This document shows, in pieces, positions 17,662-53,910 of a DNA stretch of 64,000 nt. Source of the DNA: a virus (lineage: Duplodnaviria; Caudoviricetes). The position numbers were made by a program, and so were the translations under genes. Where the stretch lies: the IMG/VR virus record IMGVR_UViG_3300006143_000333, positions 1 through 64,000 of that record, one strand, 5' to 3'. Position 1 is the stretch's first letter; each line of letters opens with the position of its first letter. The notes under the pieces were generated by a model. That model was not told the origin of the DNA. It saw only the letters and a list, made by a program, of their open reading frames with translations, and did no database searches.

Positions 17662-18275
17662 ATGTGTAAAGAAATAAATGTAATTAACAAAGCGGAAAAG
17701 GATTTGAATATCACAGTCAATAATGTAGATAGAAATATTCAGATTATAATCAACACAAAGAAAACAAATATTGATTTACTTGTATTAAAAGCAGGAGAAA
17801 CATTCAAGGTAAATAATGTCGAATACATAGTATTAGAACAGCTTGACGGAAATCAGACGGCAGTTATCAGAAAAGAATTAATAGAAGATGAGATGGAATT
17901 TGATTCTGACAATAATGATTGGAGGACAAGCAGTATTAAAAAATTTTTAAATGGAGAGTATCTAGAAGAAATTGAAAATGTATTTGGGAAAGATAGAATC
18001 GTAGAACATGTAGTAGATTTGTTATCTTTGGATGGTTTAGACGATTATGGGACAAGTATAGATAAAGTAAGTTTATTGTCGATTGATCAGTATCGGAAAT
18101 ATAGAAAAGTGCTTGGTGAAAATACAGATAATCCATGGTGGTTAATTACACCAGATTCAACGTCTTCAGGAAAATCGTCCCGCTATGTTCGGTACGTCCG
18201 CTCCGATGGCTGTGTGGACTTTAGCGACTGTGGCTGTGACGGGGTGTGCGTCCGTTTTTTATCATTCAATCTTGA
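17662..18275 (+). pseudogene. Second (remote) DGR target gene, paralog of 50808-51578, frameshifted within its VR
   Basis: Shares LSLDGLDDYG / WWLITP / RYV..V.SDG motifs with target 1; shifted frame ends GVRPFFIIQS* at 18275 vs GVRPFFILQS*. Confidence 0.8.
18178..18256 (+). repeat. DGR variable repeat VR2
   Basis: Aligns to TR 52070-52152; over the first 57 nt 13 differences at TR adenines and 4 at third-position C/T; net 4-nt deletion near the 3' end. Confidence 0.8.
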
Positions 18276-18851
18276 GCGGAGCGATAGATTGTTGTATCTT
18301 AAATCATTGAATCTTGCGAGAGAGTGGATGTTAGCTAGAAAATATACTCTGCGTAGCGGTGTTGTAAATTATAAATCATCAGACAAATTTTGTTCTGGTG
18401 ATTTTTTGATGGGAGAATAAAAAATGAGCAATAATAAAGAAACATATACTATAAAAGAAAGATTTGAGTGTTTAAATAAGAAAATGGTAATTGTTAAAGT
18501 TGATAATAAGGCTTGCTGTGTAATGATGCAAGAAGAGCATGATAAGATTATGTATGCGTATAAGAAAAATCAAAGGCAAAAATAGAAAATATATTGAAAA
18601 ATGTAGAAAATTAGCTTAAAATAGAAAATGGAGGATGTAGTAAATATGATTATATTTATTTTGTTAATAGTTTTAGCAATTATTATTGTTGCGAGTAGTT
18701 CAAAAGAAAGAAAAGTTATGAGTGATGTTAATCACATTGCACGGGATAATGAGAAGGTTATGTGGAAAGAAATTGAAAAAACAATGAGAGATGGAAAAAG
18801 TGATAAAAAAGTAACTGGATAAACTTGTTTTTTAATACATTGGAGGTTTAT

Positions 18852-31066: not shown

Positions 31067-32173
31067 ATGAAAGAGGGTTTACAAATGATGAGTAAATATT
31101 TTTGGAAAAGAAAAATTATTTATAAAGAATATAGTGATTCCGATTTGAATGCAAGTTATACAAGACTGGGGAGTCCAGTAAAAGAAGGAGAAATTACTTT
31201 AAATTCATTACGTTTGGCACGTTATATTGTCGATAGTATGATTACTCAACAAAAATGTTTTTCGTTGGCAAATATAGAAATTCTAAGCTGGATTTTACAA
31301 CTGGGAATTATGACATGTGAAGATAAAGATGGATATTTAAAATTGACACCTGAGATAAAAAGTGGTATTTTTCGTGATTTTTCTAATACAGCAAGATGCG
31401 GAGAATTAGCACAGGGAATTAATTTGTATTTGGCTAAAGAGGTACTTGGTGCGTTGAGTATTTGTGACTATACCACTTATTTAGTTGATCGTAATATAGT
31501 AGTTTCTGGTCAGACTCCAGATTATGTTTTAATTTATGATAATAAAATTGGAATCATGGAATCGAAAGGTGATTATCAAAATGATTATCCTACGCAGGTG
31601 TTACGAAAAGCAAAAAAAACACAATGTAAGGCGGGGAAAGATCTTTTTAACAAAAATGGATTGATATGTAATAATGGATATGCGAGTGTTGTGAAATTTA
31701 TATCTAAAGATTGTAAAGATACAATACAGAATAAACCTCGTGAGATTAGCATTCATTATGGCGATCCCCAATATGATATGAAAGATAAGAGAATTGATAT
31801 TCATGAAATAAGAAAAGAGTACTCAAAATGGTTTGATATTATGGGCAGAGAAAAGGATGCGTGTAAGCTAAAAACCAATAGTCCTATTGAATTTGAATAC
31901 AACAGATATAATATCCAAAATGGATTTGTGCCTATTAATAGATTATCATATGAAAATGATGAGATTTCATTTGATTTAGAAATGGGAATATCATCTGAAT
32001 TGGTCACATTATTAACCCAAAAAGATGTGACAGCAGAGGCATTTATTGATTTAAAAATGAAAAATAAAGATTCTTTTCAAAGTTTTAATGTTTTAGATGA
32101 TAATACATTTATAGATATTAATATTGACGGTACATATATTAAGGTTATGATACATGATGATATTTCGCGATAG
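31067..32173 (+). CDS. Putative PD-(D/E)xK nuclease-like protein, bracketed by sites 31046 and 32208
   Basis: GELAQG...TPDYV...IMESKG motif spacing. Confidence 0.5.
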   Translation: MKEGLQMMSKYFWKRKIIYKEYSDSDLNASYTRLGSPVKEGEITLNSLRLARYIVDSMITQQKCFSLANIEILSWILQLGIMTCEDKDGYLKLTPEIKSGIFRDFSNTARCGELAQGINLYLAKEVLGALSICDYTTYLVDRNIVVSGQTPDYVLIYDNKIGIMESKGDYQNDYPTQVLRKAKKTQCKAGKDLFNKNGLICNNGYASVVKFISKDCKDTIQNKPREISIHYGDPQYDMKDKRIDIHEIRKEYSKWFDIMGREKDACKLKTNSPIEFEYNRYNIQNGFVPINRLSYENDEISFDLEMGISSELVTLLTQKDVTAEAFIDLKMKNKDSFQSFNVLDDNTFIDINIDGTYIKVMIHDDISR

Positions 32174-44427: not shown

Positions 44428-45333
44428 ATGAGTGATAAAAAGATGAAAAGAGACGATTTAGGAAATCGCATGAAAACATTTTATGAGGAGATTCCTAAAA
44501 CAAAGTTAATGAGACGTTGCCCAGTTATATGCCGGATTGATGGCAAGGCGTTCCATACATTTGCCAGAGGGTTCAAAAGACCGTTTGATGATGTTCTTAT
44601 TATGACAATGCAGGAAACAGCAAAATATCTGTGTGAGAATATTCAAGGATGTCAATTAGCGTACACACAGTCAGACGAGATTTCTTTGTTACTGATTGAT
44701 TATCAGAGATTTGAAACTTCTGCATGGTTTGATTATGAGATTCAGAAAATGTGTAGTATCTCTGCAAGTATGGCAACTATGGCGTTCAATAAATTTTTGT
44801 ATAGAAATATTGAGGATTATGGACGTGATTGCTGCTATGATCCAGATGTTTGTAATTATGGGAGTAAAATTAATCCAGGTAGAGAAGATGATTATAAACG
44901 ATACAAAGAAGTTTATAGAACAAGATTGTTTATGGGTGCTATGTTTGATGCCAGAGTCTTCAATATTCCCAAAGAAGAAATAACTAATTATTTCTACTGG
45001 CGGCAATTAGATGCCTCAAGAAATAGTATTCAGATGGTAGGACAAGCAAATTTCAGTCATAAGGAGTTACAGTTTAAATCTTGTAATGACATTCAGGATA
45101 TGCTTATGACACAAAGAGGGATTAATTGGAATGACCTTCCTACATATCAGAAACGTGGGAGTTGCGTAGTAAAAAATAAAGTTGTTCTTGAATCGGATGG
45201 TGTAAAAGAGAAGTGTATGTTGCGTGATCCGAAACATGGTGAAAACAATTGGATTATTGATTGTGACATTCCCATTTTCAAGGGAGAGGACAGAGAGTAT
45301 ATTGAACAGTTTGTGAATGTAGGAGAGGTGTAA
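44428..45333 (+). CDS. Thg1-like tRNA(His) guanylyltransferase / 3'-5' polymerase
   Basis: RIDGKAFHTF, YTQSDEIS, FDARVF, YFYWRQLDA..NS. Confidence 0.9.
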   Translation: MSDKKMKRDDLGNRMKTFYEEIPKTKLMRRCPVICRIDGKAFHTFARGFKRPFDDVLIMTMQETAKYLCENIQGCQLAYTQSDEISLLLIDYQRFETSAWFDYEIQKMCSISASMATMAFNKFLYRNIEDYGRDCCYDPDVCNYGSKINPGREDDYKRYKEVYRTRLFMGAMFDARVFNIPKEEITNYFYWRQLDASRNSIQMVGQANFSHKELQFKSCNDIQDMLMTQRGINWNDLPTYQKRGSCVVKNKVVLESDGVKEKCMLRDPKHGENNWIIDCDIPIFKGEDREYIEQFVNVGEV

Positions 45334-45658
45334 AATTATGGATATTAGTAAAGCTGAAAAAATTGGTAAAGTTATGAATAATATTAATCGTTGCAAAAGT
45401 TTTCTTGGTTGCTTGAAAGACAGGGGTTATCCTGACAGCTTTGAAATCTATTATAGAGATTATAAAGCTTGTGATCTTGAGGAAGATGTATTGGATATTA
45501 TTATTGAACACTACGAAAACGAATTGGAGAGATATAACGAAGAGCTGAAAAAACTTTAAGCATTGAAACTAACATTTCAAGTCAATATAGGATCAATATA
45601 TGGTATGTGAGTAATTAACTAATAACAATATATAGCGCAATAAAAAGGAGAGCAAATT

Positions 45659-47745
45659 ATGGAATTTACAGAAATGAGAAACAAATTGATGGAAAACTTT
45701 AATGAGATGGTAAAAGACGTAGATCATCTTTTTGAAGTAGCAGTAGACAAGGATGAATTATGGAATCTGTACCTTGATAGTTTTCCAGCAGGAACTAATG
45801 AGATTTACAGAGAACGAAGGTGGCATGACTGTAGTTGTTGTCACCAGTTTATTAAGACAATTGGAAATGTTGTTGTGATTAAAAACGGAGAAATTACAAC
45901 CATTTATATCAGCCAGTGTTAGATGCTCTGTCAAGTTTTATCAAGTCTCATGCTGTATCAGATATTTTTGTGAGTAAGTTTAAGAAAATCGGTACTTTAC
46001 AGAATTATGAAGAATTAGAAAATGGCAAGGTACAGGAATGGACTCATTTTTATTTAGAGTTGCCTGATAAATTTGTGGACAGAAGTAGCAGATCAGAAGG
46101 CGATATTAAAGGCGGCTTTAGGGATACAAGGAATGTTTTTAAGCGTTCTCTGGATGAGATTACAATGGATTCCATTGACACAATTTTGGAACTTATTAAT
46201 TCCAATACCCTTTATAAAGGAGAAGAGTGGAAGGGTGTGCTTGGTGAGTTTAAGAAATACAAGAAGGAATATGATAAACTCACTTCCGATGTTGAAAGAG
46301 ATAATTATGCGTGGGAACAGTCGGTAAAAGCTGGTATTGCTATTGGTCGGATCAGAAATCACAGCATTGGAACACTGCTTGTCAATGTAAGTGAAGAAAT
46401 GGATTTGGACACAGCGGTTAAGAAGTATGAACAGATTGTAGCACCTGCAAATTATAAGCGTCCAAAGGCAATTTATACAAAGAAGATGCTTGAAGATGCA
46501 AAGAAAACCATTACAGAACTTGGATATCTGGATTCTTTGCAGAGAAGATTTGCTAATTTGGATGATATTACAGTAAATAATATTTTGTTTTCTAATAGAG
46601 ATGCTGCTAAGAGGATTGTTGGCGCCGATGATATTTTTGGGGAGATGGAAAAGGATGTTGCTGTAAATCCGAGAAAGTTTTCCAAGGTTGAGGAAATTCC
46701 AGTAAAAGATTTTATTGAAAATATATTACCAACTGCAAAGGATATTGAAATATATTTGGAAAACAAACATACGTCTAATATGGTTTCGCTAATTGCTCCA
46801 AAAATCAAAAATTCAAAAACTATGTTCAAATGGAATAATGGATTTTCTTGGGCATATAGTGGAAACATTACAGACAGTGATATTACACAGAGAGTACAAA
46901 ATGCTGGCGGTCGTATTGACGGAGTTTTAAGATTTTCACATAGTTGGAATTATGAGGGTATGCGAAATGGATCTCTTATGGATTTACATGTATTCATGCC
47001 TGGCTCAAATCAAAAAGTAGAATATAAAAATGGAAAAGAAATTCATGATAACTATGGAAACAATGAGCGTGTTGGATGGAATCATAGACAGCATTTGCCT
47101 TCTGGTGGAGTACAAGATGTTGATTATGTTAATGTTGCACCAGTCGGATATATTCCTGTAGAAAATACAACATTTCCATCAATTGAAAAATTGAAAGAAG
47201 GAATATATACATTTAAAATTCATAACTGGAATTTTAGAAATCCGACAACTGGTGGTTTTAAAGCAGAAATCGCTTTTGATGGACAGGTTTATAGATTTAT
47301 TAGAAGAGAACCTTTACAGCATAAGGAATGGATAACTTTAGCAAAGTTAGAACTTAAAAATGGTCATTTTGAAATAATAGAAATGATGGAAAATGATACT
47401 ACTCCTATTGAAATTTGGGGATTAAAGACTAATCAATTTATTCCTGTATCAGCAATTAGTTATAGTCCAAATTACTTTGATGAGCAGGACGGTATTGGAC
47501 ACAGACATTTATTCTTCTTCCTAAAGGATTGTGTAAATACAGAAGAACCAAATGGATATTACAATGAATTTTTGAAGAATGAACTTGCGGAACATAAGAG
47601 AGTGTTTGAGGCTCTTGGAGCAAAGTGTCATGTGGAAGATACAGAGGATCAACTTTCTGGAATTGGATTTAGTATGACTAAGAGAGCAGAATTGATTGTT
47701 AAAGTAAAAGGTGCAACAGAAAGAATCATGAAGGTAAAATTTTAA
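45659..47745 (+). pseudogene. Large phage protein split by a frameshift near 45905
   Basis: ORFs 45659-45922 (HDCSCC) and 45916-47745 overlap in different frames; second has no RBS. Confidence 0.6.
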
Positions 47746-47766
47746 TCAGAAAAGGAGAAAGAGATT

Positions 47767-48156
47767 ATGGCAGTAGAAAACATTTTTGAGTATGCAACAA
47801 GGAATAAGGTACATTTTCCGTATAAAGGGAATGTTTGGGTAGAGGATCTGTGGGACTTATCGGTTACAGAACTTGATAAGGTGTTTAAGTCGCTTAATTC
47901 ACAGAAAAAGCAGTCTCAGGAAGAAAGTCTTTTGAATACAAAATCAAAGGAAGACGAGATTGTGGAAGTTCAGATTGCTATTGTAAAGCATATTGTAGCT
48001 GTAAAATTAGCAGAGAAGGAAGCAAAAGAAAAAGCGGCTGAAAATAAGGTTAAGAAACAGAAGATTATGGCTATTATGGCAGCGAGAGATGAAAAGGCAT
48101 TAGAAAATGCTTCAGATGAAGATTTACAGAAAATGCTTTCGGAACTGGATGGGTGA
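47767..48156 (+). CDS. Hypothetical phage protein (coiled coil)
   Basis: VEDLWDL motif; AAGGAG RBS. Confidence 0.7.
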   Translation: MAVENIFEYATRNKVHFPYKGNVWVEDLWDLSVTELDKVFKSLNSQKKQSQEESLLNTKSKEDEIVEVQIAIVKHIVAVKLAEKEAKEKAAENKVKKQKIMAIMAARDEKALENASDEDLQKMLSELDG

Positions 48157-48225
48157 TTAAGTAGTATGTGATAGGTAAAACTGTTGCATGACCAATTTAA
48201 TAGAATAATTGGAAAGGAAAATAGA

Positions 48226-49314
48226 ATGAAAGAAGTTACGAATAGATTTGGAACAGGAATTTTGTACGAAGAAAGTGATTTAGGAAAGAACATTTATTGT
48301 GTATGTACTGCCTGCATGAGTGTGTGGTCTGATTTTTTGAGCTTTGCGAATGAGGAGGCTGTTAAAGACAAAGATGGCAAGTGTGTTACACCATATTTTG
48401 TAGAAGAAAATTCTAATGATGTACTTAATCCAACAGATACGATCGTTGTTCTGGGGTGTCAGGTAACTGATCTTGCGATTTACAATGATTTAGAAACTGC
48501 AGAAGAACTTCATGAGCAGCATCCCAATACTCCAATTTATATGGGAGGATGTCTTGCACAGAGATTTGATATTGAGTTACCAGATTATCTTAGACGACTT
48601 GATGTTGTGCGAAAAGAATATGTAGATTTGAAGTATGTTACAGGGTTTATTGATTATAGAAAGCCTTTCTGGAATAGAAAATTAAAAGAAAACGATGATG
48701 AGTTTGCAGTTGGTAATTTGTTTCGGCATATGTATCCTTTGAAAATTGGAGCAGGATGTCATGGTAAGTGTAAGTATTGTACAATTCGTAACACAAGAGG
48801 AGAAACATATCATACTGATGCATATTTACAGGTAAAAGAATTTCTGGATCATGCTGATGAAAGTGTTGTAGTAATTAGTGATAGTCCAACTGTACAACAG
48901 ATTAAGGATTGGTGTCATATAGCAATTCGGTACAATAAACCTATTTCTTTTAGAAATGTGGAACCTCAAAATGCAAATGCTTGTAGAGATGAATTAATCA
49001 GTTTAGCAGATAAAGGATTGCTGAAGATATTTCATTGCCCTATCCAAAGTGATAACGCAAGAGTTCTTCAGGCTATGAATAGAGACATTGATCAAACCCT
49101 TTGGTATGTTGCACTTGCACAGGATTTAAGAAAATGTGGAACAAAAGTAGCTACCAATATTATCATTGATTATGTTGTGGATGGAAAAGTAATACATAAC
49201 ATGAATGAAAATTGGTTGAATGATAAGTTTGATTATTGGTCCTGGAATCCCTATTTTGATGGCAATTGGGATTATCAGAAAGCTGAAGAAAGATTTAAAA
49301 AGTATATTGGATAA
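48226..49314 (+). CDS. Radical SAM protein, MiaB/RimO-like architecture
   Basis: CTAC, LGCQV, GGCLAQR N-terminal cysteines plus GCHGKCKYC (CxxxCxxC). Confidence 0.7.
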   Translation: MKEVTNRFGTGILYEESDLGKNIYCVCTACMSVWSDFLSFANEEAVKDKDGKCVTPYFVEENSNDVLNPTDTIVVLGCQVTDLAIYNDLETAEELHEQHPNTPIYMGGCLAQRFDIELPDYLRRLDVVRKEYVDLKYVTGFIDYRKPFWNRKLKENDDEFAVGNLFRHMYPLKIGAGCHGKCKYCTIRNTRGETYHTDAYLQVKEFLDHADESVVVISDSPTVQQIKDWCHIAIRYNKPISFRNVEPQNANACRDELISLADKGLLKIFHCPIQSDNARVLQAMNRDIDQTLWYVALAQDLRKCGTKVATNIIIDYVVDGKVIHNMNENWLNDKFDYWSWNPYFDGNWDYQKAEERFKKYIG

Positions 49315-49320
49315 TCAAAA

Positions 49321-49480
49321 CAGTCGTTGGTGAAAGATAAACGCATTTAAGACAATAATATGCTCACAGGAGGTAACGCTTACACAAAAGTAAGTATTCC
49401 GAGGCAGGTAATCGGCTTCAACATATGAAGTATCTGAACTGTGCATGAGTGCTGGAGGAGTGAAAGGCTCACCACGACTG
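49321..49480 (+). ncRNA. Candidate structured RNA, 160 nt
   Basis: Ends pair (CAGTCGTTGGTGA / TCACCACGACTG); three internal hairpins; GC-rich intergenic segment. Confidence 0.5.
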
Positions 49481-50807
49481 GTTATTGAGAAAGGGAAAAT
49501 ATGAAAAACAAAATAGAAGAAGCAAAAGATTTAAAGTATCGGTTAGAAAATAATAAAAAGATAGTCCAATATTGTCTTGGAAAACAGGAAGATAATGACG
49601 GCGGATTTATTCATAATCCCAATAATGATAAACATAATTTTGTGTTTTCTACCACACAACATCATTCATCAAAACCAATATATTTAGATGCTTACTATGG
49701 ATATTATGGCAATAGTAATGTATCTATGTTTAATGATGAATTTTACATTACATGTATGGTAGAAGCAATAAATAAATTTCTTCCTCAACTTAGGGAAGAA
49801 ACAGAGAAAATTATGGGGCAGAAATACAATGAAGCACTATTAGAGGCGAAAGGTGAAGCTGAGAAGATTCTTAAAACAATTGAAGATCTAGGTTTGAATT
49901 AGGCAATGAAAAATTCATTTCAATTATTACAGAAGGAGAGGTCATGATTAATATAGAGAAAACAGATAGTATAGAACAAGAATATTTACAGTGTTCAAGC
50001 TGTTTAAAATGTAATGATGATTTAAATATGTTTAAAATCATTGTTGGTAAAAATATGAGACAAACAACAACTGTGAAATTATGCGAAGAATGTATGCGTG
50101 ATTTATTGGAAGATTTAAAAAGATTGGAAATTAACGGTCAGATATAAGTGGCAATGAATATTTGATTTTGTGGTGTGAGGTGATAGGATGACAGAGAATG
50201 AAGCAATCGCAAGAATGAGGTACAGAATAGATACAGCAACAGAAGCAATTGGAAAAGGTTCTGATGGTAAGGCTTATGAGGATATGGAAATCGCAATTAA
50301 AGCACTTGAAGAAATTCAACAGTACAGAGTAATTGGGACAGTTGAGGAATGTCGAGAGGCACGGGAAAGGCAGATTGGGAAGAACCCCATAATTTTAAGT
50401 GAGCAATCTGTAGAATCAGAGAAAAAATTATATATAGCAAAGTATTTCAAATGTCCTACTTGCGGAAACACATCTACATATTTCGGAGGACTACCTAATA
50501 ATTGTCATAATTGTGGTCAGAGGTTGGAGAGTGATGCCACATGACCTACCAAAGAGCAGACCAAAAACATCCATTAATGGGGCTTGATAATAAAATCTGT
50601 AAAAATCCTGCCTATTGGTGTAGGTTACATCAAGTCTGGTTGTCTGATGATGATGTAAAGAAGAAACAATGTAAATGTAAACAGACTTTTGACATGGTTG
50701 GTACATATTGTTGCGGAAATTTAGTCAAGAAGTCAATAAAATGAAACTTTCAAGTAAGAAAAGAGAAATATATATATCACAAAAATGAAAAGGAGAGATG
50801 ATAAGTT

Positions 50808-51578
50808 ATGTGTAATTTTAAGAGTGGAATTATTTTGAAGAACAAGGTGGTTTTAGCACCAGAAGGAAATGAAAGCCATTCAGATTTATTGAAAAATCTT
50901 GAAATTGAAGATACTCACATGAATGCATCTAAAACATTTGTAAGAGCAGAGTTAATTCCTAAAAATAATGATAAAACGACCAATGTAAAAGACTGGAGAT
51001 ATAAAGTCGATCAGGATATTGTGCCTGATTGGTATGAAAAAGACCCAGAGAGATACGAACAAGATTTTAGAAATGCAGTTGAAGAATATATGAATGAGTG
51101 GAGAAAACAGTTAAAATTCATTTGTGGGCATTATTGGACAAGTGCTCAGGATGGGAATCGTACATATTATTTTATGAATGGGATTCTTAAAAAGTCAGAC
51201 TTTGGTAAAACAAATAATTATGCAGAATCTTATGTGCGGAGAGATCTTATTAATAGTGAGTTGGCAGAGGATTTAAAGAAAGAATTTGGAGATAAACTTG
51301 TTCCGATTTCTCTTGATTTGACTTCTATGGATGGATTTAAAGATTATGGAAGTGTTGAAGGTGATATTTTAGCAATCCCAAATATTCAGTTGCTTATGAA
51401 GTTTGGTGAAAGTATTCCATTGATTGATAATTGGTATTGGCTTGCTAATCCTAATCAGACACCGAAGAGAAACGACGCCCGCTATGTTCTGTGCGTTAGC
51501 TCCGATGGCGATGTGTGCTACGGCGATTGCGGCTGGAGTGGCCGGGGCGTGCGTCCGTTTTTCATCCTTCAATCTTAA
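50808..51578 (+). CDS. DGR target protein with C-terminal variable (C-type lectin-like, DUF6273-like) domain
   Basis: WYWLANP...VR...GVRPFF C-terminus. Confidence 0.9.
   Translation: MCNFKSGIILKNKVVLAPEGNESHSDLLKNLEIEDTHMNASKTFVRAELIPKNNDKTTNVKDWRYKVDQDIVPDWYEKDPERYEQDFRNAVEEYMNEWRKQLKFICGHYWTSAQDGNRTYYFMNGILKKSDFGKTNNYAESYVRRDLINSELAEDLKKEFGDKLVPISLDLTSMDGFKDYGSVEGDILAIPNIQLLMKFGESIPLIDNWYWLANPNQTPKRNDARYVLCVSSDGDVCYGDCGWSGRGVRPFFILQS
51477..51559 (+). repeat. DGR variable repeat VR1
   Basis: 83-nt ungapped alignment to TR; 18 mismatches, all at TR adenines. Confidence 0.97.
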
Positions 51579-51620
51579 ATCTTTGAATTTTGCAAAAAAC
51601 CATCGGGTAGCCAGTAATCA

Positions 51621-51638
51621 GGAATGCGTCAGCATTCC
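51621..51638 (+). other. DGR target-recognition-like hairpin
   Basis: GGAATGC-GTCA-GCATTCC downstream of VR1/IMH, nested in CATCGG/CCGATG. Confidence 0.65.
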
Positions 51639-51679
51639 GTAGGTAGCCGATGAGCGACTGAAAGGAGCGGGGAAAACCA

Positions 51680-52048
51680 GTGAGCGAAGCGAAACTGGAT
51701 GTTATTGTAAAAGCAATAAATCTTATGGAATATACTATGACAATTACATCAAACCGAAAGAGGTATCCAGTTAAGCATTTAACATTGGTAAAACGCATCC
51801 AAAATCGCTGTATGGATATATATGAATATTTGCTTGATGCAAATAGGCTGAAATTGGATACTTCAAAATCGGAACGCCAAGAATTACAAACAAAAGCATT
51901 TTCATGTTGTGATAAGTTGTCTTGTTATGTGGAACTTTCTATGAAATTGAAATTAATTGGAAGTGATACAGTAGGATATTGGCAGAAACAAATAAATGAT
52001 GTGAAATATATGAGTATTGCATGGCGTTCAAAAGATAAAGAGAGATAA
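51680..52048 (+). CDS. avd: Avd accessory variability determinant (four-helix bundle)
   Basis: 122-aa basic helical protein, YPVK..LVKRIQ..AN...W pattern, between VR and TR. Confidence 0.85.
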   Translation: MSEAKLDVIVKAINLMEYTMTITSNRKRYPVKHLTLVKRIQNRCMDIYEYLLDANRLKLDTSKSERQELQTKAFSCCDKLSCYVELSMKLKLIGSDTVGYWQKQINDVKYMSIAWRSKDKER

Positions 52049-52069
52049 TTTTAGGTTGTTTGTTGTATG

Positions 52070-52152
52070 ACCCACTATGTTCAGTACGTTAACTCCAATG
52101 GCAATGTGAACTACAACGATTGCAACTGGAATGACAAAGGCGTGCGTCCGTT
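52070..52152 (+). repeat. DGR template repeat TR
   Basis: AAC/AAT-rich template with 25 adenines; diverges from VR after GTGCGTCCGTT (IMH*). Confidence 0.97.
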
Positions 52153-52271
52153 CTGGATCGGAAGACGAATGAAAGTAAGAGAAACACTGAAATTAGAGTC
52201 CCGATATCAAAAGAATAAACAACCTTTCCTGATTCAAAAATGTCAGGATAAATACAAAGGAACAAAATACT

Positions 52272-53315
52272 ATGATAGAAGATAAAACAGATTTTGAAAA
52301 AGTAGTAGATTTCGGTAATTTATATCAAGCATATTTAAAATCTAAATCAGGTAAAGGTTTTTCAAAAAGCAGTCAAAAATTCCAAGTATTAGCTCTTGAT
52401 GGAATTCATCAAATAAAGAGAAGATTAGAAACTAAAACATATCAAGTATCAAAATACAATGAATTTATAATATATGAACCGAAAGAGAGAGTCATTAAAG
52501 CATGTTCGTTTGTAGATAAAATTGTACAGCATAGTTTGTGTGATAATGTACTGATTCCAAGATTGAATAAAGAGTTTATTCAAACAAATTATGCTGGACA
52601 GATTGGCAAAGGTACATTGTATGGATTGGATTGCTTAAAAGCTCAGATGTATCTTGCATATCAGAAGTATGGATATGATTGTTGGATTATAAAAGCTGAT
52701 GTTAGCAAGTTCTTTTACAATATCAATCACGATATTTTGAAGGATATTTTGAAATATTTTATAGAAAATAAAGAAGTGTATTGGCTGTGTGAGAAGTTTA
52801 TTGATAGTACTGAGGGAGTAGGACTTCCATTAGGTAATCAGGTTAGTCAAGTATTTGCACTTTTATATTTATCAGTGTTAGATCACTTTATCACAGGAGA
52901 ACTTGGAGTTAAATATTATGGTAGATATATGGATGATTTTTATTTGATAGTACAAAATAAAGAATATGCGAAATGGTGTTTAGCAGCTATTTATGAGTTT
53001 GTGTATTCATTAGGTCTTGAATTAAACAGTAAGACTCAGGTCATTCCTTTTAAAAATGGAATCAAATTTTGTGGTTTTCATACATATGTGACTTCAGATG
53101 GTAAAGTAATCCGAAAGCTGAAGAACGAAAATAAACGTGCCGCTAAAAAGAAATTTAAGAAAATGGTTGGATTAGTGAGGTGTGGAAAACTTAGCAAAGA
53201 GAAATTTTATGAGAGTTACAATGCTTGGAAAAATCATATATCACATGGCAATTGTGTGAAATTGGGATATGAGATGGATAGATATATAGAAAAATTATTT
53301 ATAGGAGAAAAATGA
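52272..53315 (+). CDS. DGR reverse transcriptase
   Basis: EPKER, KADVSKFF, GLPLGNQVSQ (DGR-type SQ), RYMDDF. Confidence 0.95.
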   Translation: MIEDKTDFEKVVDFGNLYQAYLKSKSGKGFSKSSQKFQVLALDGIHQIKRRLETKTYQVSKYNEFIIYEPKERVIKACSFVDKIVQHSLCDNVLIPRLNKEFIQTNYAGQIGKGTLYGLDCLKAQMYLAYQKYGYDCWIIKADVSKFFYNINHDILKDILKYFIENKEVYWLCEKFIDSTEGVGLPLGNQVSQVFALLYLSVLDHFITGELGVKYYGRYMDDFYLIVQNKEYAKWCLAAIYEFVYSLGLELNSKTQVIPFKNGIKFCGFHTYVTSDGKVIRKLKNENKRAAKKKFKKMVGLVRCGKLSKEKFYESYNAWKNHISHGNCVKLGYEMDRYIEKLFIGEK

Positions 53316-53910
53316 TGGAATATATTTTGTTTTCATTTATATTGGCTGGAACACCTGCTTTATATACTGGATATTGTAATAAATTGAGAGACTTAATTCG
53401 ATTAATTTTCATCATAACATTTATCGTAATCTATTATATTAATAAATGGGAAACCGCAGATATTAATGTGGGATTATTCGTTTGTTGGTGTGCAGTATGG
53501 ACGATATTTTGGGATAATTTATATAAGAAACTTAAAAGGAAATGAAACACGAGTTTTAAGGAGGAAAATTATGAAATCAGTAGAAGAAAGAATTACAAAT
53601 AAGATTGAAGAAAGTGAAGATGGAGTGTTGATGAAGTTCCTTGGAGCTAAAAATGTTGAAAGACTGAAAAAGGAAGTTACAGATGCAATTATTCAACAGG
53701 TAATCAAAGATTTACATGATAGTTGTGATTATATAATTAGCCCAGACGATATAGTGCAAGACATTATTGATGATATTATAGATTCTGCTAATAAGAATAT
53801 TAGACCGAAAGTAGAAAAGCTGTTGTATAAGAAAGCTATGGAAAAATTAGGATTAGAGGAATAGTTTTAAAATTTCCGTTTTAAGGCTATTTTAGAGAAA
53901 GGATAATAAT

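Follow-up and report, generated by a model that had tools for sequence, protein, structure and literature searches.

We found a complete diversity-generating retroelement (DGR) in the genome of a large phage (Caudoviricetes), a prophage of mouse-gut Lachnospiraceae, within a stretch of 64,000 nucleotides (the window; positions 1 to 64,000 of IMG/VR record IMGVR_UViG_3300006143_000333). The only target of this DGR is a 256-aa protein whose gene is on the early/replication strand and well away from those for the virion. Because the target is encoded among early accessory genes and not among tail genes, its binding partner is probably within the infected cell; such DGR targets are rare among phages but have a precedent. 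The explanation as a whole, in which an early, non-virion protein with a lectin fold is the sole DGR client and binds a variable intracellular partner, seems to us fairly probable.

Experimental knowledge of phage DGRs comes largely from one case, BPP-1, in which a receptor-binding tail protein is diversified, leading to receptor switching. If the sole client of a phage DGR is an early cytoplasmic protein, phages also use hypermutation within the cell, the most plausible setting being the race between defence and counter-defence. The many DGR targets in gut phages that are listed as of “unknown function” would then call for a different reading.

Components of the retroelement

The element comprises, from 5′ to 3′ on the + strand, the target gene with its VR, a hairpin, avd, the TR and the reverse transcriptase (RT). 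The target gene (50808-51578; phrog_9958) is an ORF in which the VR (51477-51559) occupies codons 224-251 of 256. The TR (52070-52152) aligns with the VR without gaps and differs from it at 18 of 83 positions, all of which are TR adenines (15 A>G, 2 A>T and 1 A>C, or 82% A>G). The TR has 25 adenines, distributed so as to give 7 AAY codons and 1 AAA codon, and the probability that all 18 mismatches would fall on adenines by chance is 6e-13. An earlier interpretation of this DNA (the sequence-only reading) had given the same counts, and our alignment confirms them to the base. The VR ends in a GC-rich 14-mer, GGCGTGCGTCCGTT (51546-51559), that is identical in the TR, and the alignment of the two repeats ceases to show homology 3′ of it. 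Given this IMH-like position, the 14-mer may, by analogy with BPP-1, serve as the IMH.

The hairpin (GGAATGC-GTCA-GCATTCC, 51621-51638) has a 7-bp stem and is located 62 nt 3′ of the VR. It is followed by avd, the accessory variability determinant (51680-52048, 122 aa), which matches phrog_3206, “Avd protein of DGR” (E 4e-18), and scores 30.8 bits against NF033474, under the cut-off of 80. The RT (52272-53315, 347 aa) contains LGNQVSQ and YMDD and matches RVT_1 and phrog_1423 (E 2e-108); it was assigned to the DGR type by its motifs ([LIV]GxxxSQ and YxDD), these family matches and its adjacency to the TR. By its position, the spacer between TR and RT (52153-52271) is presumed to belong to the TR-containing template RNA, as in the BPP-1 model. 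The avd gene, the RT with its two motifs and the 7-bp hairpin had all been listed in the sequence-only reading, with ORFs as we find them, and its description of the DGR as complete is fully supported by the TR/VR pair, the family matches of avd and RT, and the hairpin. When the 12 kb surrounding the DGR were compared with GenBank phages by megablast, the sole match was an irrelevant one of 200 bp.

Domains of the target protein

Predicting the structure of the target had been proposed as a check. The resulting AF2 model (pLDDT 96.1) suggests an N-terminal domain (50808-51119, residues 1 to ~100) and a C-terminal DUF6273-type C-type-lectin domain (residues 103-256). The modeled C-terminal domain resembles the N-terminal part of the T. 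ramosa IgA peptidase (9qa6, Z 14.2), Lcl (8q4e, Z 9.1) and the DGR target TvpA (2y3c, Z 8.2), and DUF6273 is mentioned in the paper on the IgA peptidase (PMC12402451). According to this model, the VR would lie within a C-type-lectin fold at the 3′ end of the target. Structure matches of the target in BFVD also include DUF6273 proteins, some of which are named as tail or receptor-binding proteins. The Pfam model of DUF6273 (PF19789) does not match the target itself; for an 84%-identical relative (P0058), the score is 24.9 bits, with a cut-off of 23.5.

The N-terminal domain, which begins at residue 1 (MC.FKSGII...), represents a large uncharacterised family; the target matches more than 1000 representative clusters. 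The domain is a constant module throughout this family and always occurs at residue 1. Elsewhere, it is fused to beta-solenoid-like or pentapeptide repeats, on contigs that are mostly too short to reveal gene context. Sequence searches of the domain against Pfam, PHROGs, PADLOC and NCBIfam found no match, a profile search of the PDB gave a single match (E 0.12), and an atlas search returned its own kin alone. At the level of fold, Foldseek found nothing and the best VIA match, to RNase PH-like subunits (Z 5.3), is within noise. Because there is no recognisable fold or catalytic signature, an “effector” role for this domain is a guess, and the family deserves a structure and a screen for partners. 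We found no signal peptide in the target and no fibre, collar or trimerisation domain, and the N-terminal domain matches no virion protein.

Genomic context

Genes in the first 124 kb of the record are all on the + strand, and have accessory, replication and nucleotide metabolism functions. The − strand begins at 125-129 kb with an endolysin and a tail-fibre-like gene. An integrase (123625-124842 of the record) and the integration of relatives in isolate genomes indicate that the phage is temperate. In one relative, a ~210-kb prophage of Eubacterium plexicaudatum ASF492 on which we found no literature, the tape-measure, minor-tail and portal genes occupy the opposite arm, at distances of 66-160 kb from the DGR. 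The 238-kb contig with this prophage, including its structural arm, has one VR in total, and the phage's own contig has no VR in the structural arm, its sole extra copy being the decayed VR2 described below. Both RT and target are missing from two relatives that are 97-100% complete.

The neighbors of the target and its relatives include Thg1-like and N6_N4_Mtase (N6/N4 methyltransferase) genes, joined in the relatives by GmrSD_N and PemK, and a 47%-identical homologue is found among PARP-like, LPD11 and LexA-DBD accessory genes. Relatives of each of the two domains occur just past the repressor/cro switch in early operons of small temperate phages (45-62 kb). For example, Dulem virus 35 encodes an N-domain protein between the repressor/cro genes, which it directly follows, and the replication genes. 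The target is not Mtd-like in the sense of being encoded in or beside a tail module, since tail genes are more than 65 kb away on the opposite arm. It does have the context seen for a second target in Quimbyvirus: far from structural genes, on the opposite strand and with defence or counter-defence neighbors. This context argues against a place for the target in the virion. The sequence-only reading had called the target non-structural, a claim that is favored, short of proof, by strand and distance, by the lack of a VR in trans, by the loss of the unit in complete relatives and by kin in early operons.

Comparison with other DGR targets

The DGR of BPP-1 (Mtd, Avd, TR, bRT) has the same parts in the same order. 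In both, TR and VR differ specifically at adenines, the VR is C-terminal in a C-type-lectin target and has a GC-rich 3′ end, and a hairpin follows downstream. However, Mtd is a trimeric protein of the tail-fibre tip encoded in the tail module, whereas the target here is a small early-region protein with an unrelated N-terminal domain, the hairpin is 62 nt from the VR end and 82% of the substitutions seen are A>G.

DUF6273-type targets are known in gut Firmicutes phages, namely the tentaclins and the Mtd-like “target2” of nd4/nd12 (PMC10743442), and targets in Toutatisvirus (bioRxiv 2024.10.15.618418) and in the Faecalibacterium phages Lelie, Roos and Pioen (PMC11792537). They share with our target the lectin-type domain, a VR at the C-terminal end and a DUF6273-like structure, and tblastn finds weak matches of the target to the records of nd12 (31672-32040) and Lelie, at 33-34% identity. 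These proteins are presumed to act in receptor binding or decoration of the virion and often have Ig-like domains or tail-gene neighbors. By contrast, the protein studied here has a different N-terminal domain, belongs to the early arm and is not paired with a structural target.

That such lectins are usually presumed to be virion proteins raises the question of whether our target could also be an accessory virion protein (receptor-binding, decoration or mucus-binding) that happens to be encoded outside the structural cluster. Its N-terminal domain would serve to dock it to the capsid or tail, with adsorption tuned by the DGR, as for Mtd, the tentaclins and Hoc-like targets. The tail and receptor-binding names among the BFVD matches fit this idea, as does the combination of a constant N-terminal module with swappable C-terminal binding modules, which resembles modular receptor-binding proteins. 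Moreover, virion genes are scattered in large phages, and for a protein with no signal peptide, display on the virion (or lysis) is a possible route to an outside ligand. Nonetheless, we consider this explanation rather unlikely, in view of an early-strand gene more than 65 kb from tail and portal genes, complete relatives that lack the whole unit, kin of both domains in immediate-early operons beside the lysogeny switch of 45-62-kb phages, and a protein without virion-type domains whose N-terminal part is unlike any virion protein searched.

A closer parallel to an early, non-virion target is found in Quimbyvirus (“Quimbyviridae”), whose second DGR target is in a defence-related island and was proposed by the authors to be non-structural and to act in phage-host conflict (Benler et al. 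2021, Microbiome 9:78, PMC8008677). The sequence-only reading had presented the contrast with the classic phage DGR as novel and overlooked this precedent. A phage DGR target proposed to be non-structural has already been published, and ours would not be the first of its kind. Compared by description, both are C-type-lectin targets encoded on the strand opposite to the structural module, at a great distance from it and among methyltransferase and RNA-repair genes. However, Quimbyvirus has a Bacteroides host, a frameshifted RT and a tail-proximal target that is also diversified. Here, the early-region protein is the sole target, is located in cis beside avd, TR and RT, and carries a distinct N-terminal domain, in a genome of ~200 kb with a Lachnospiraceae host.

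Another possible parallel occurs in the Faecalibacterium phage FP_Brigit. Its gp06 (NC_047909, 3948-4559) is a small DUF6273-like protein that is 35% identical to our target over the C-terminal domain, and its gene is located just past the HTH switch genes and before recombination and replication genes. The 3′ end of gp06 differs from the TR of this phage at adenines only. This pattern indicates that gp06, 41 kb away, is a second target of a DGR with a Hoc-like target in cis; the Hoc-like protein is the only target named for this DGR (PMC5883640). Unlike our target, gp06 has no N-terminal domain and is a remote instead of a cis target.

Proposed role of the target

In the BPP-1 model, RT and Avd would copy the TR RNA into cDNA while misreading adenines, and the cDNA would take the place of the final ~83 nt that encode the target. 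The rewritten codons are presumably on the ligand-binding face of the lectin domain, with the scaffold kept constant. We propose that the target is an early product of infected or induced cells and does not belong to the virion. Its variable lectin face would bind a partner within the cell, as the sequence-only reading had also inferred, and this partner would itself vary, the most plausible candidate being a polymorphic target in host defence or host takeover. The conserved N-terminal domain would supply a constant effector or adaptor activity.

A broader and more tentative idea is that the target belongs to an early phage protein family in which a constant N-terminal effector or adaptor is joined to exchangeable recognition modules, either a DGR-rewritten lectin or an expandable, solenoid-like repeat array. 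The DGR might then generate, much as antibodies are generated, intracellular binders for variable proteins of hosts or rival phages, in effect a programmable counter-defence, of which FP_Brigit gp06 and the island target of Quimbyvirus could be further instances.

The partner might alternatively come from other phages: a defence or superinfection-exclusion sensor carried by the prophage and made in the lysogen could recognise proteins of an invading phage by its lectin face and trigger exclusion by its N-terminal domain. The phage does appear to be temperate, PMC8008677 and PMC7517822 cite proposals of intracellular sensors diversified by DGRs in bacterial conflict systems, and the unit is dispensable, with hypervariable accessory surroundings that include methyltransferase, GmrSD-like and toxin genes. 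However, the small-phage relatives are in the rightward early lytic operon and not on the repressor side, promoter and terminator scans gave no excess over shuffles and so no signal of the unit's own, and the target has no match to PADLOC families and no recognisable effector domain. We regard such a sensor as improbable.

Variation among relatives

The DGR is currently active. We found the same unit in 8 relatives from mouse-gut Lachnospiraceae genomes, where TR and VR differ by 10-18 adenine-only mismatches each, with about 0 mismatches at other bases; the VR variability is a comparison across assemblies, between genomes. In the target, 8-13 of the 16 codons with a TR adenine differ, versus 4-28 of the 223 outside the VR, and different VRs are found on proteins with identical scaffolds. 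Among 120 target homologues, entropy peaks at codons 231, 233, 235, 237, 239, 242, 244 and 246, which are the AAY codons. Rewriting of the 16 VR codons gives about 10^14 possible proteins. The sequence-only reading would have taken a lack of VR variation across relatives as a sign of inactivity, a concern that falls away because activity is evident across them.

The remaining parts (RT, Avd, TR and hairpin) are all conserved among the relatives. The TR of L034 is identical to that at 52070-52152, avd is 91-99% identical, and the hairpin, when the sequences are folded singly, keeps its position, with compensatory changes giving four versions of the stem sequence. A 98%-identical unit is present in the ASF492 prophage, and the unit also occurs in several other isolates; ASF492 is a culturable mouse commensal, which makes the system testable.

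The decayed VR2 (18178-18260) lies within a paralogue with a DUF6273-like domain (17662-18420, +), whose conserved C-terminal end is out of frame and which scores 23.0 bits against PF19789 (cut-off 23.5). A search for its orthologue in the genomes of five relatives matched the main targets alone. Although this decayed gene and the absence of the unit from two complete relatives could point to a relic or a selfish passenger, with old, neutral variation and a target without a selected binding function, we consider this very improbable given the zero non-adenine mismatches in VR1, the different VRs on identical scaffolds, the conserved parts and compensated hairpin, TR/VR pairs that are intact on scaffolds up to 45% diverged, and a target-avd-RT unit retained down to 43% target identity.

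Borders of the unit

The boundary motif of this phage group is T(G/A)AA(A/T)-N6-(T/A)TT(C/T)A. One site that fits it, TAAAA-TGAAAC-TTTCA (50737-50752), is ~55 nt 5′ of the target start and forms the left edge of the unit; the next, TGAAA-CACGAG-TTTTA, is at 53543-53558. The sequence-only reading had proposed that the DGR travels as a cassette between these two sites, together with a small membrane protein. The right part of this proposal is not supported: homology to relatives ends at ~53300, in the last RT codons, and only L041 and L042 have a site nearby. The ORF for the 77-aa hydrophobic (membrane) protein (53312-53545, +) adjoins the unit; it is absent 3′ of the RT in L034-L042 and is specific to this genome. 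It is therefore outside the conserved unit.

No empty site with the TGAAAC spacer was found in relatives without the DGR among the loci fetched. The left part of the proposal is supported, since homology with five genomes (L034, L036, L039, L040 and L041) begins at 50730-50736, that is, exactly at the left site. In part, then, the data suggest that the unit is an accessory module of a group of ~200-kb temperate phages, with a recombination-type site delimiting its 5′ side. The TGAAAC spacer of this site is common to 6 genomes, with 5 different upstream flanks.

Components and layout of the DGR

The window covers the first 64 kb of one phage contig (128,958 bp, 32% GC) and carries a diversity-generating retroelement (DGR) on the + strand. 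The target gene (50808-51578) encodes 256 aa, and its variable repeat (VR, 51477-51559) covers codons 224-251. Downstream are a hairpin (51621-51638, between the target gene and avd), the accessory gene avd (51680-52048; phrog_3206 'Avd protein of DGR', E 4e-18), the template repeat (TR, 52070-52152) and, after a 119-nt spacer, the reverse transcriptase gene (RT, 52272-53315; RVT_1; phrog_1423, E 2e-108), with LGNQVSQ and YMDD motifs. VR and TR align without gaps and differ at 18 of 83 positions, all 18 at TR adenines, of which 25 are available (15 A>G, 2 A>T and 1 A>C); the probability of such exclusive placement is 6e-13. Realignment and ORF calls reproduced every number that the sequence-only reading had given for repeats, mismatches and ORFs. 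All testable defining features of DGRs are present, and the target fold and VR position are canonical. On the BPP-1 model, the IMH would be assigned, and RT and Avd would act, as in that system.

Variation among relatives

Scanning one genome per species, we found the target-avd-TR-RT unit in mouse-gut Lachnospiraceae, including several MAGs. The unit in Eubacterium plexicaudatum ASF492 has 98% nucleotide identity over 2.6 kb; other carriers are Roseburia sp. 1XD42-69, Lachnospiraceae bacteria MD308 and A4, and bacterium 1xD42-87. In 8 of 8 relative genomes, the genome's own TR and VR show 10-18 adenine mismatches and essentially none at other bases, a pattern that persists with target scaffolds down to 56% identity.

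Across 120 aligned homologues (82-100% identical), mean column entropy is 0.40 bits over residues 1-222. It climbs to 2.1-3.2 bits precisely where codons are AAY-templated (231, 233, 235, 237, 239, 242 and 244), and at codon 246. Compared with the window's target protein, close relatives have changes in 8-13 of 16 adenine-bearing codons, in 0-1 of the remaining VR codons and in 4-28 of the 223 scaffold residues, and one 90% cluster has members with identical scaffolds and different VRs. Given these adenine-specific differences, entropy peaks and identical scaffolds, the VR clearly varies across relatives, so that the complete DGR described by the sequence-only reading stands and is not the invariant element that would have counted against it. 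Judged by these patterns across relatives, the element is active. All relatives keep a hairpin downstream of the VR, and its stem occurs in four different sequences, the pattern that a functional target-recognition structure would leave. The TR could encode about 10^14 proteins.

TR-adenine changes in the window VR and the VRs of the relatives' DGR loci (L034-L042) are strongly skewed, with 103 of 126 being A>G, 17 A>T and 6 A>C. RT bias or selection for Gly/Asp/Ser codons could cause this skew.

The target protein

Structure prediction of the target, a check proposed earlier, gave a confident two-domain AlphaFold2 model (70-sequence alignment; pLDDT 96.1, pTM 0.84), in which residues 103-256 are predicted to form a C-type-lectin fold. 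The best structural match of this C-domain (Z 14.2, rmsd 2.6, 151 residues) is the N-terminal part of the Thomasclavelia ramosa IgA peptidase; next come the C-terminal domain of Legionella Lcl (Z 9.1) and TvpA, a DGR target (Z 8.2). The C-domain also matches viral models named DUF6273, which the literature on gut Firmicutes phages (PMC10743442, bioRxiv 2024.10.15.618418, PMC11792537) describes as a lectin-like domain found in DGR targets. The Pfam DUF6273 model is reached by close relatives and a paralogue only, not by the target. Neither a signal peptide nor a hydrophobic segment was found in the target sequence.

Residues 1 to ~100 form a separate alpha/beta domain (pLDDT 93.4 when modelled alone), for which searches of Pfam, PHROGs, PADLOC, a PDB sequence profile and folds found no family or fold match. 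An exhaustive search of 50% representatives gave 1153 clusters of target relatives. Many match the N-domain alone, always from residue 1, and their C-termini consist of 8- or 10-residue solenoid-like tandem repeats in variable number, true pentapeptide repeats, or nothing. Because the N-domain is always at residue 1 while C-termini vary among clusters, the family seems to combine a constant N-module with recognition modules that can be exchanged. We infer the N-domain's function, the ligand's identity and the timing of target expression.

Perfect tandem repeats of 8 or 10 residues, such as GNATVE..IC and GSSTVQEMY, form the end of many N-domain ORFs (in L045, L046, L049-L052, L054, L055 and L058, contigs that carry them), and the copy number of these repeats is very different between genomes. 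Two N-domain ORFs extend into masked or unresolved stretches.

Virion protein or early protein

All genes at 1-124 kb of the contig are on the + strand, comprising accessory genes, a replisome (90-103 kb) and nucleotide metabolism (109-120 kb); next come an integrase and then, on the - strand, an endolysin and a tail-fibre-like gene at the contig end. The ASF492 contig carries the whole element as a low-GC stretch of ~210 kb, collinear with this contig, whose second arm, on the opposite strand, has tape-measure, minor-tail and portal genes 66-160 kb from the DGR. Since the 238-kb contig has exactly one VR, the DGR has no hidden structural target there. IMG/VR relatives share the downstream 267-aa (80-91% identity) and 141-aa (58-83%) genes and lack RT and target; two of them are rated 97% and 100% complete, which argues that the unit is dispensable for virion production in this phage group. 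A 47%-identical full-length homologue in another, 158-kb phage has PARP-like, LPD11 and LexA-DBD accessory genes as neighbours, and in Dulem virus 35 (45 kb) an N-domain protein lies directly behind repressor/cro genes, ahead of replication genes.

The best reading of these several independent lines (strand, distance, single VR, dispensability and early-placed relatives, FP_Brigit gp06 among them) is that the target is probably an early, non-virion protein, so the non-structural role claimed previously is favoured, but not secured. A virion protein is a less probable alternative that we nevertheless retain, since the general presumption is that DUF6273 targets bind receptors, virion genes are scattered in large phages, and the modular constant-N/variable-C layout fits receptor-binding proteins too.

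The ~210-kb stretch in ASF492 (AQFT02000004.1) resembles a jumbo-sized prophage with two convergent arms. This culturable strain belongs to the Altered Schaedler Flora; a literature search for ASF492 with prophage found no paper.

Comparison with known systems

Benler et al. 2021 (PMC8008677) reported a Quimbyvirus DGR target within a defence-related island; its strand is opposite to that of the structural genes, and methyltransferases and a tRNA ligase lie close by. The neighbourhood here is alike: this genome and its relatives have Thg1-like, N6/N4 methyltransferase, GmrSD-like and PemK genes. What is unusual is the sort of protein that is diversified, and Quimbyvirus is the published precedent for it. 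New are an early-region protein as the sole, cis-encoded DGR target, DGR hosts that are ~200-kb temperate phages of Lachnospiraceae, a target bearing a widespread, unclassified N-terminal domain, and a recombination-type site that coincides with the 5′ edge of the unit.

The nearest C-domain relative from a phage with a cultured host is gp06 of Faecalibacterium phage FP_Brigit (L080:3948-4559; 203 aa, DUF6273-like), located in the immediate-early region, a position akin to that of the Dulem virus 35 N-domain gene. Its 3′ end differs from the FP_Brigit TR (L081:1183-1262) only at adenines, and it is 41 kb from the RT; VR1 of this phage is at L081:3198-3325. By this sequence pattern, gp06 is a second, remote DGR target of FP_Brigit. 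The original description names a Hoc-like target only (PMC5883640).

Boundaries of the unit

The sequence-only reading placed the DGR in a cassette between sites 50737 and 53543. Both fit the motif T(G/A)AA(A/T)-N6-(T/A)TT(C/T)A, loose matches to which number 71 in the contig versus 20.6 +/- 4.3 in mononucleotide shuffles. Only the left boundary held: in five relatives, homology to the window begins at 50730-50736, at site 50737, and six genomes, among which the upstream flanks are of five different kinds, share a TGAAAC spacer in front of the target gene. On the right, homology stops at ~53300, within the last RT codons, rather than at 53543, and most relatives have no site and different downstream genes there. 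The 77-aa membrane ORF, previously placed with the unit between the two sites, is peculiar to the window's strain group. An unrelated short contig has the target-avd-RT unit as well (43% target identity). With the left break at the site and the right break in the RT end, we regard the unit as an accessory module whose 5′ edge is defined by a site. Among relatives' loci without the DGR, no empty site with the TGAAAC spacer was found.

In the stretch from the Thg1-like gene to the DGR (45333-50808), gene content varies among near-identical strains (compared with L005 8013-10001 and L010 6634-8001, loci of relatives); a 609-aa phrog_1735 protein, a radical-SAM gene and a 133-aa gene are present in the window and absent from L005. 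A site with spacer AATTCA lies directly 5′ of the 267-aa gene in L010, and in the window the AATTCA-spacer site (49907) stands in front of a block of 4 kb containing the DGR.

A paralogue and a composite ORF

A DUF6273-like paralogue (17662-18420, + strand), flanked by a DUF4942 methyltransferase and a GmrSD_N-like gene, has a decayed repeat, VR2 (18178-18260). VR2 mismatches the TR at 15 adenine sites and 5 non-A sites, and a net loss of 4 nt shifts the conserved GVRPFFIIQS end out of frame. No orthologue was found in five relatives' genomes. Two readings fit this gene: a relic target, or an artefact from assembling a hypervariable region.

A 652-aa ORF (genome 118518-120476; L004:8518-10473) has an anaerobic ribonucleotide reductase activase-like C-terminus and an internal HNH endonuclease region, which may be an intein or a homing-endonuclease insertion.
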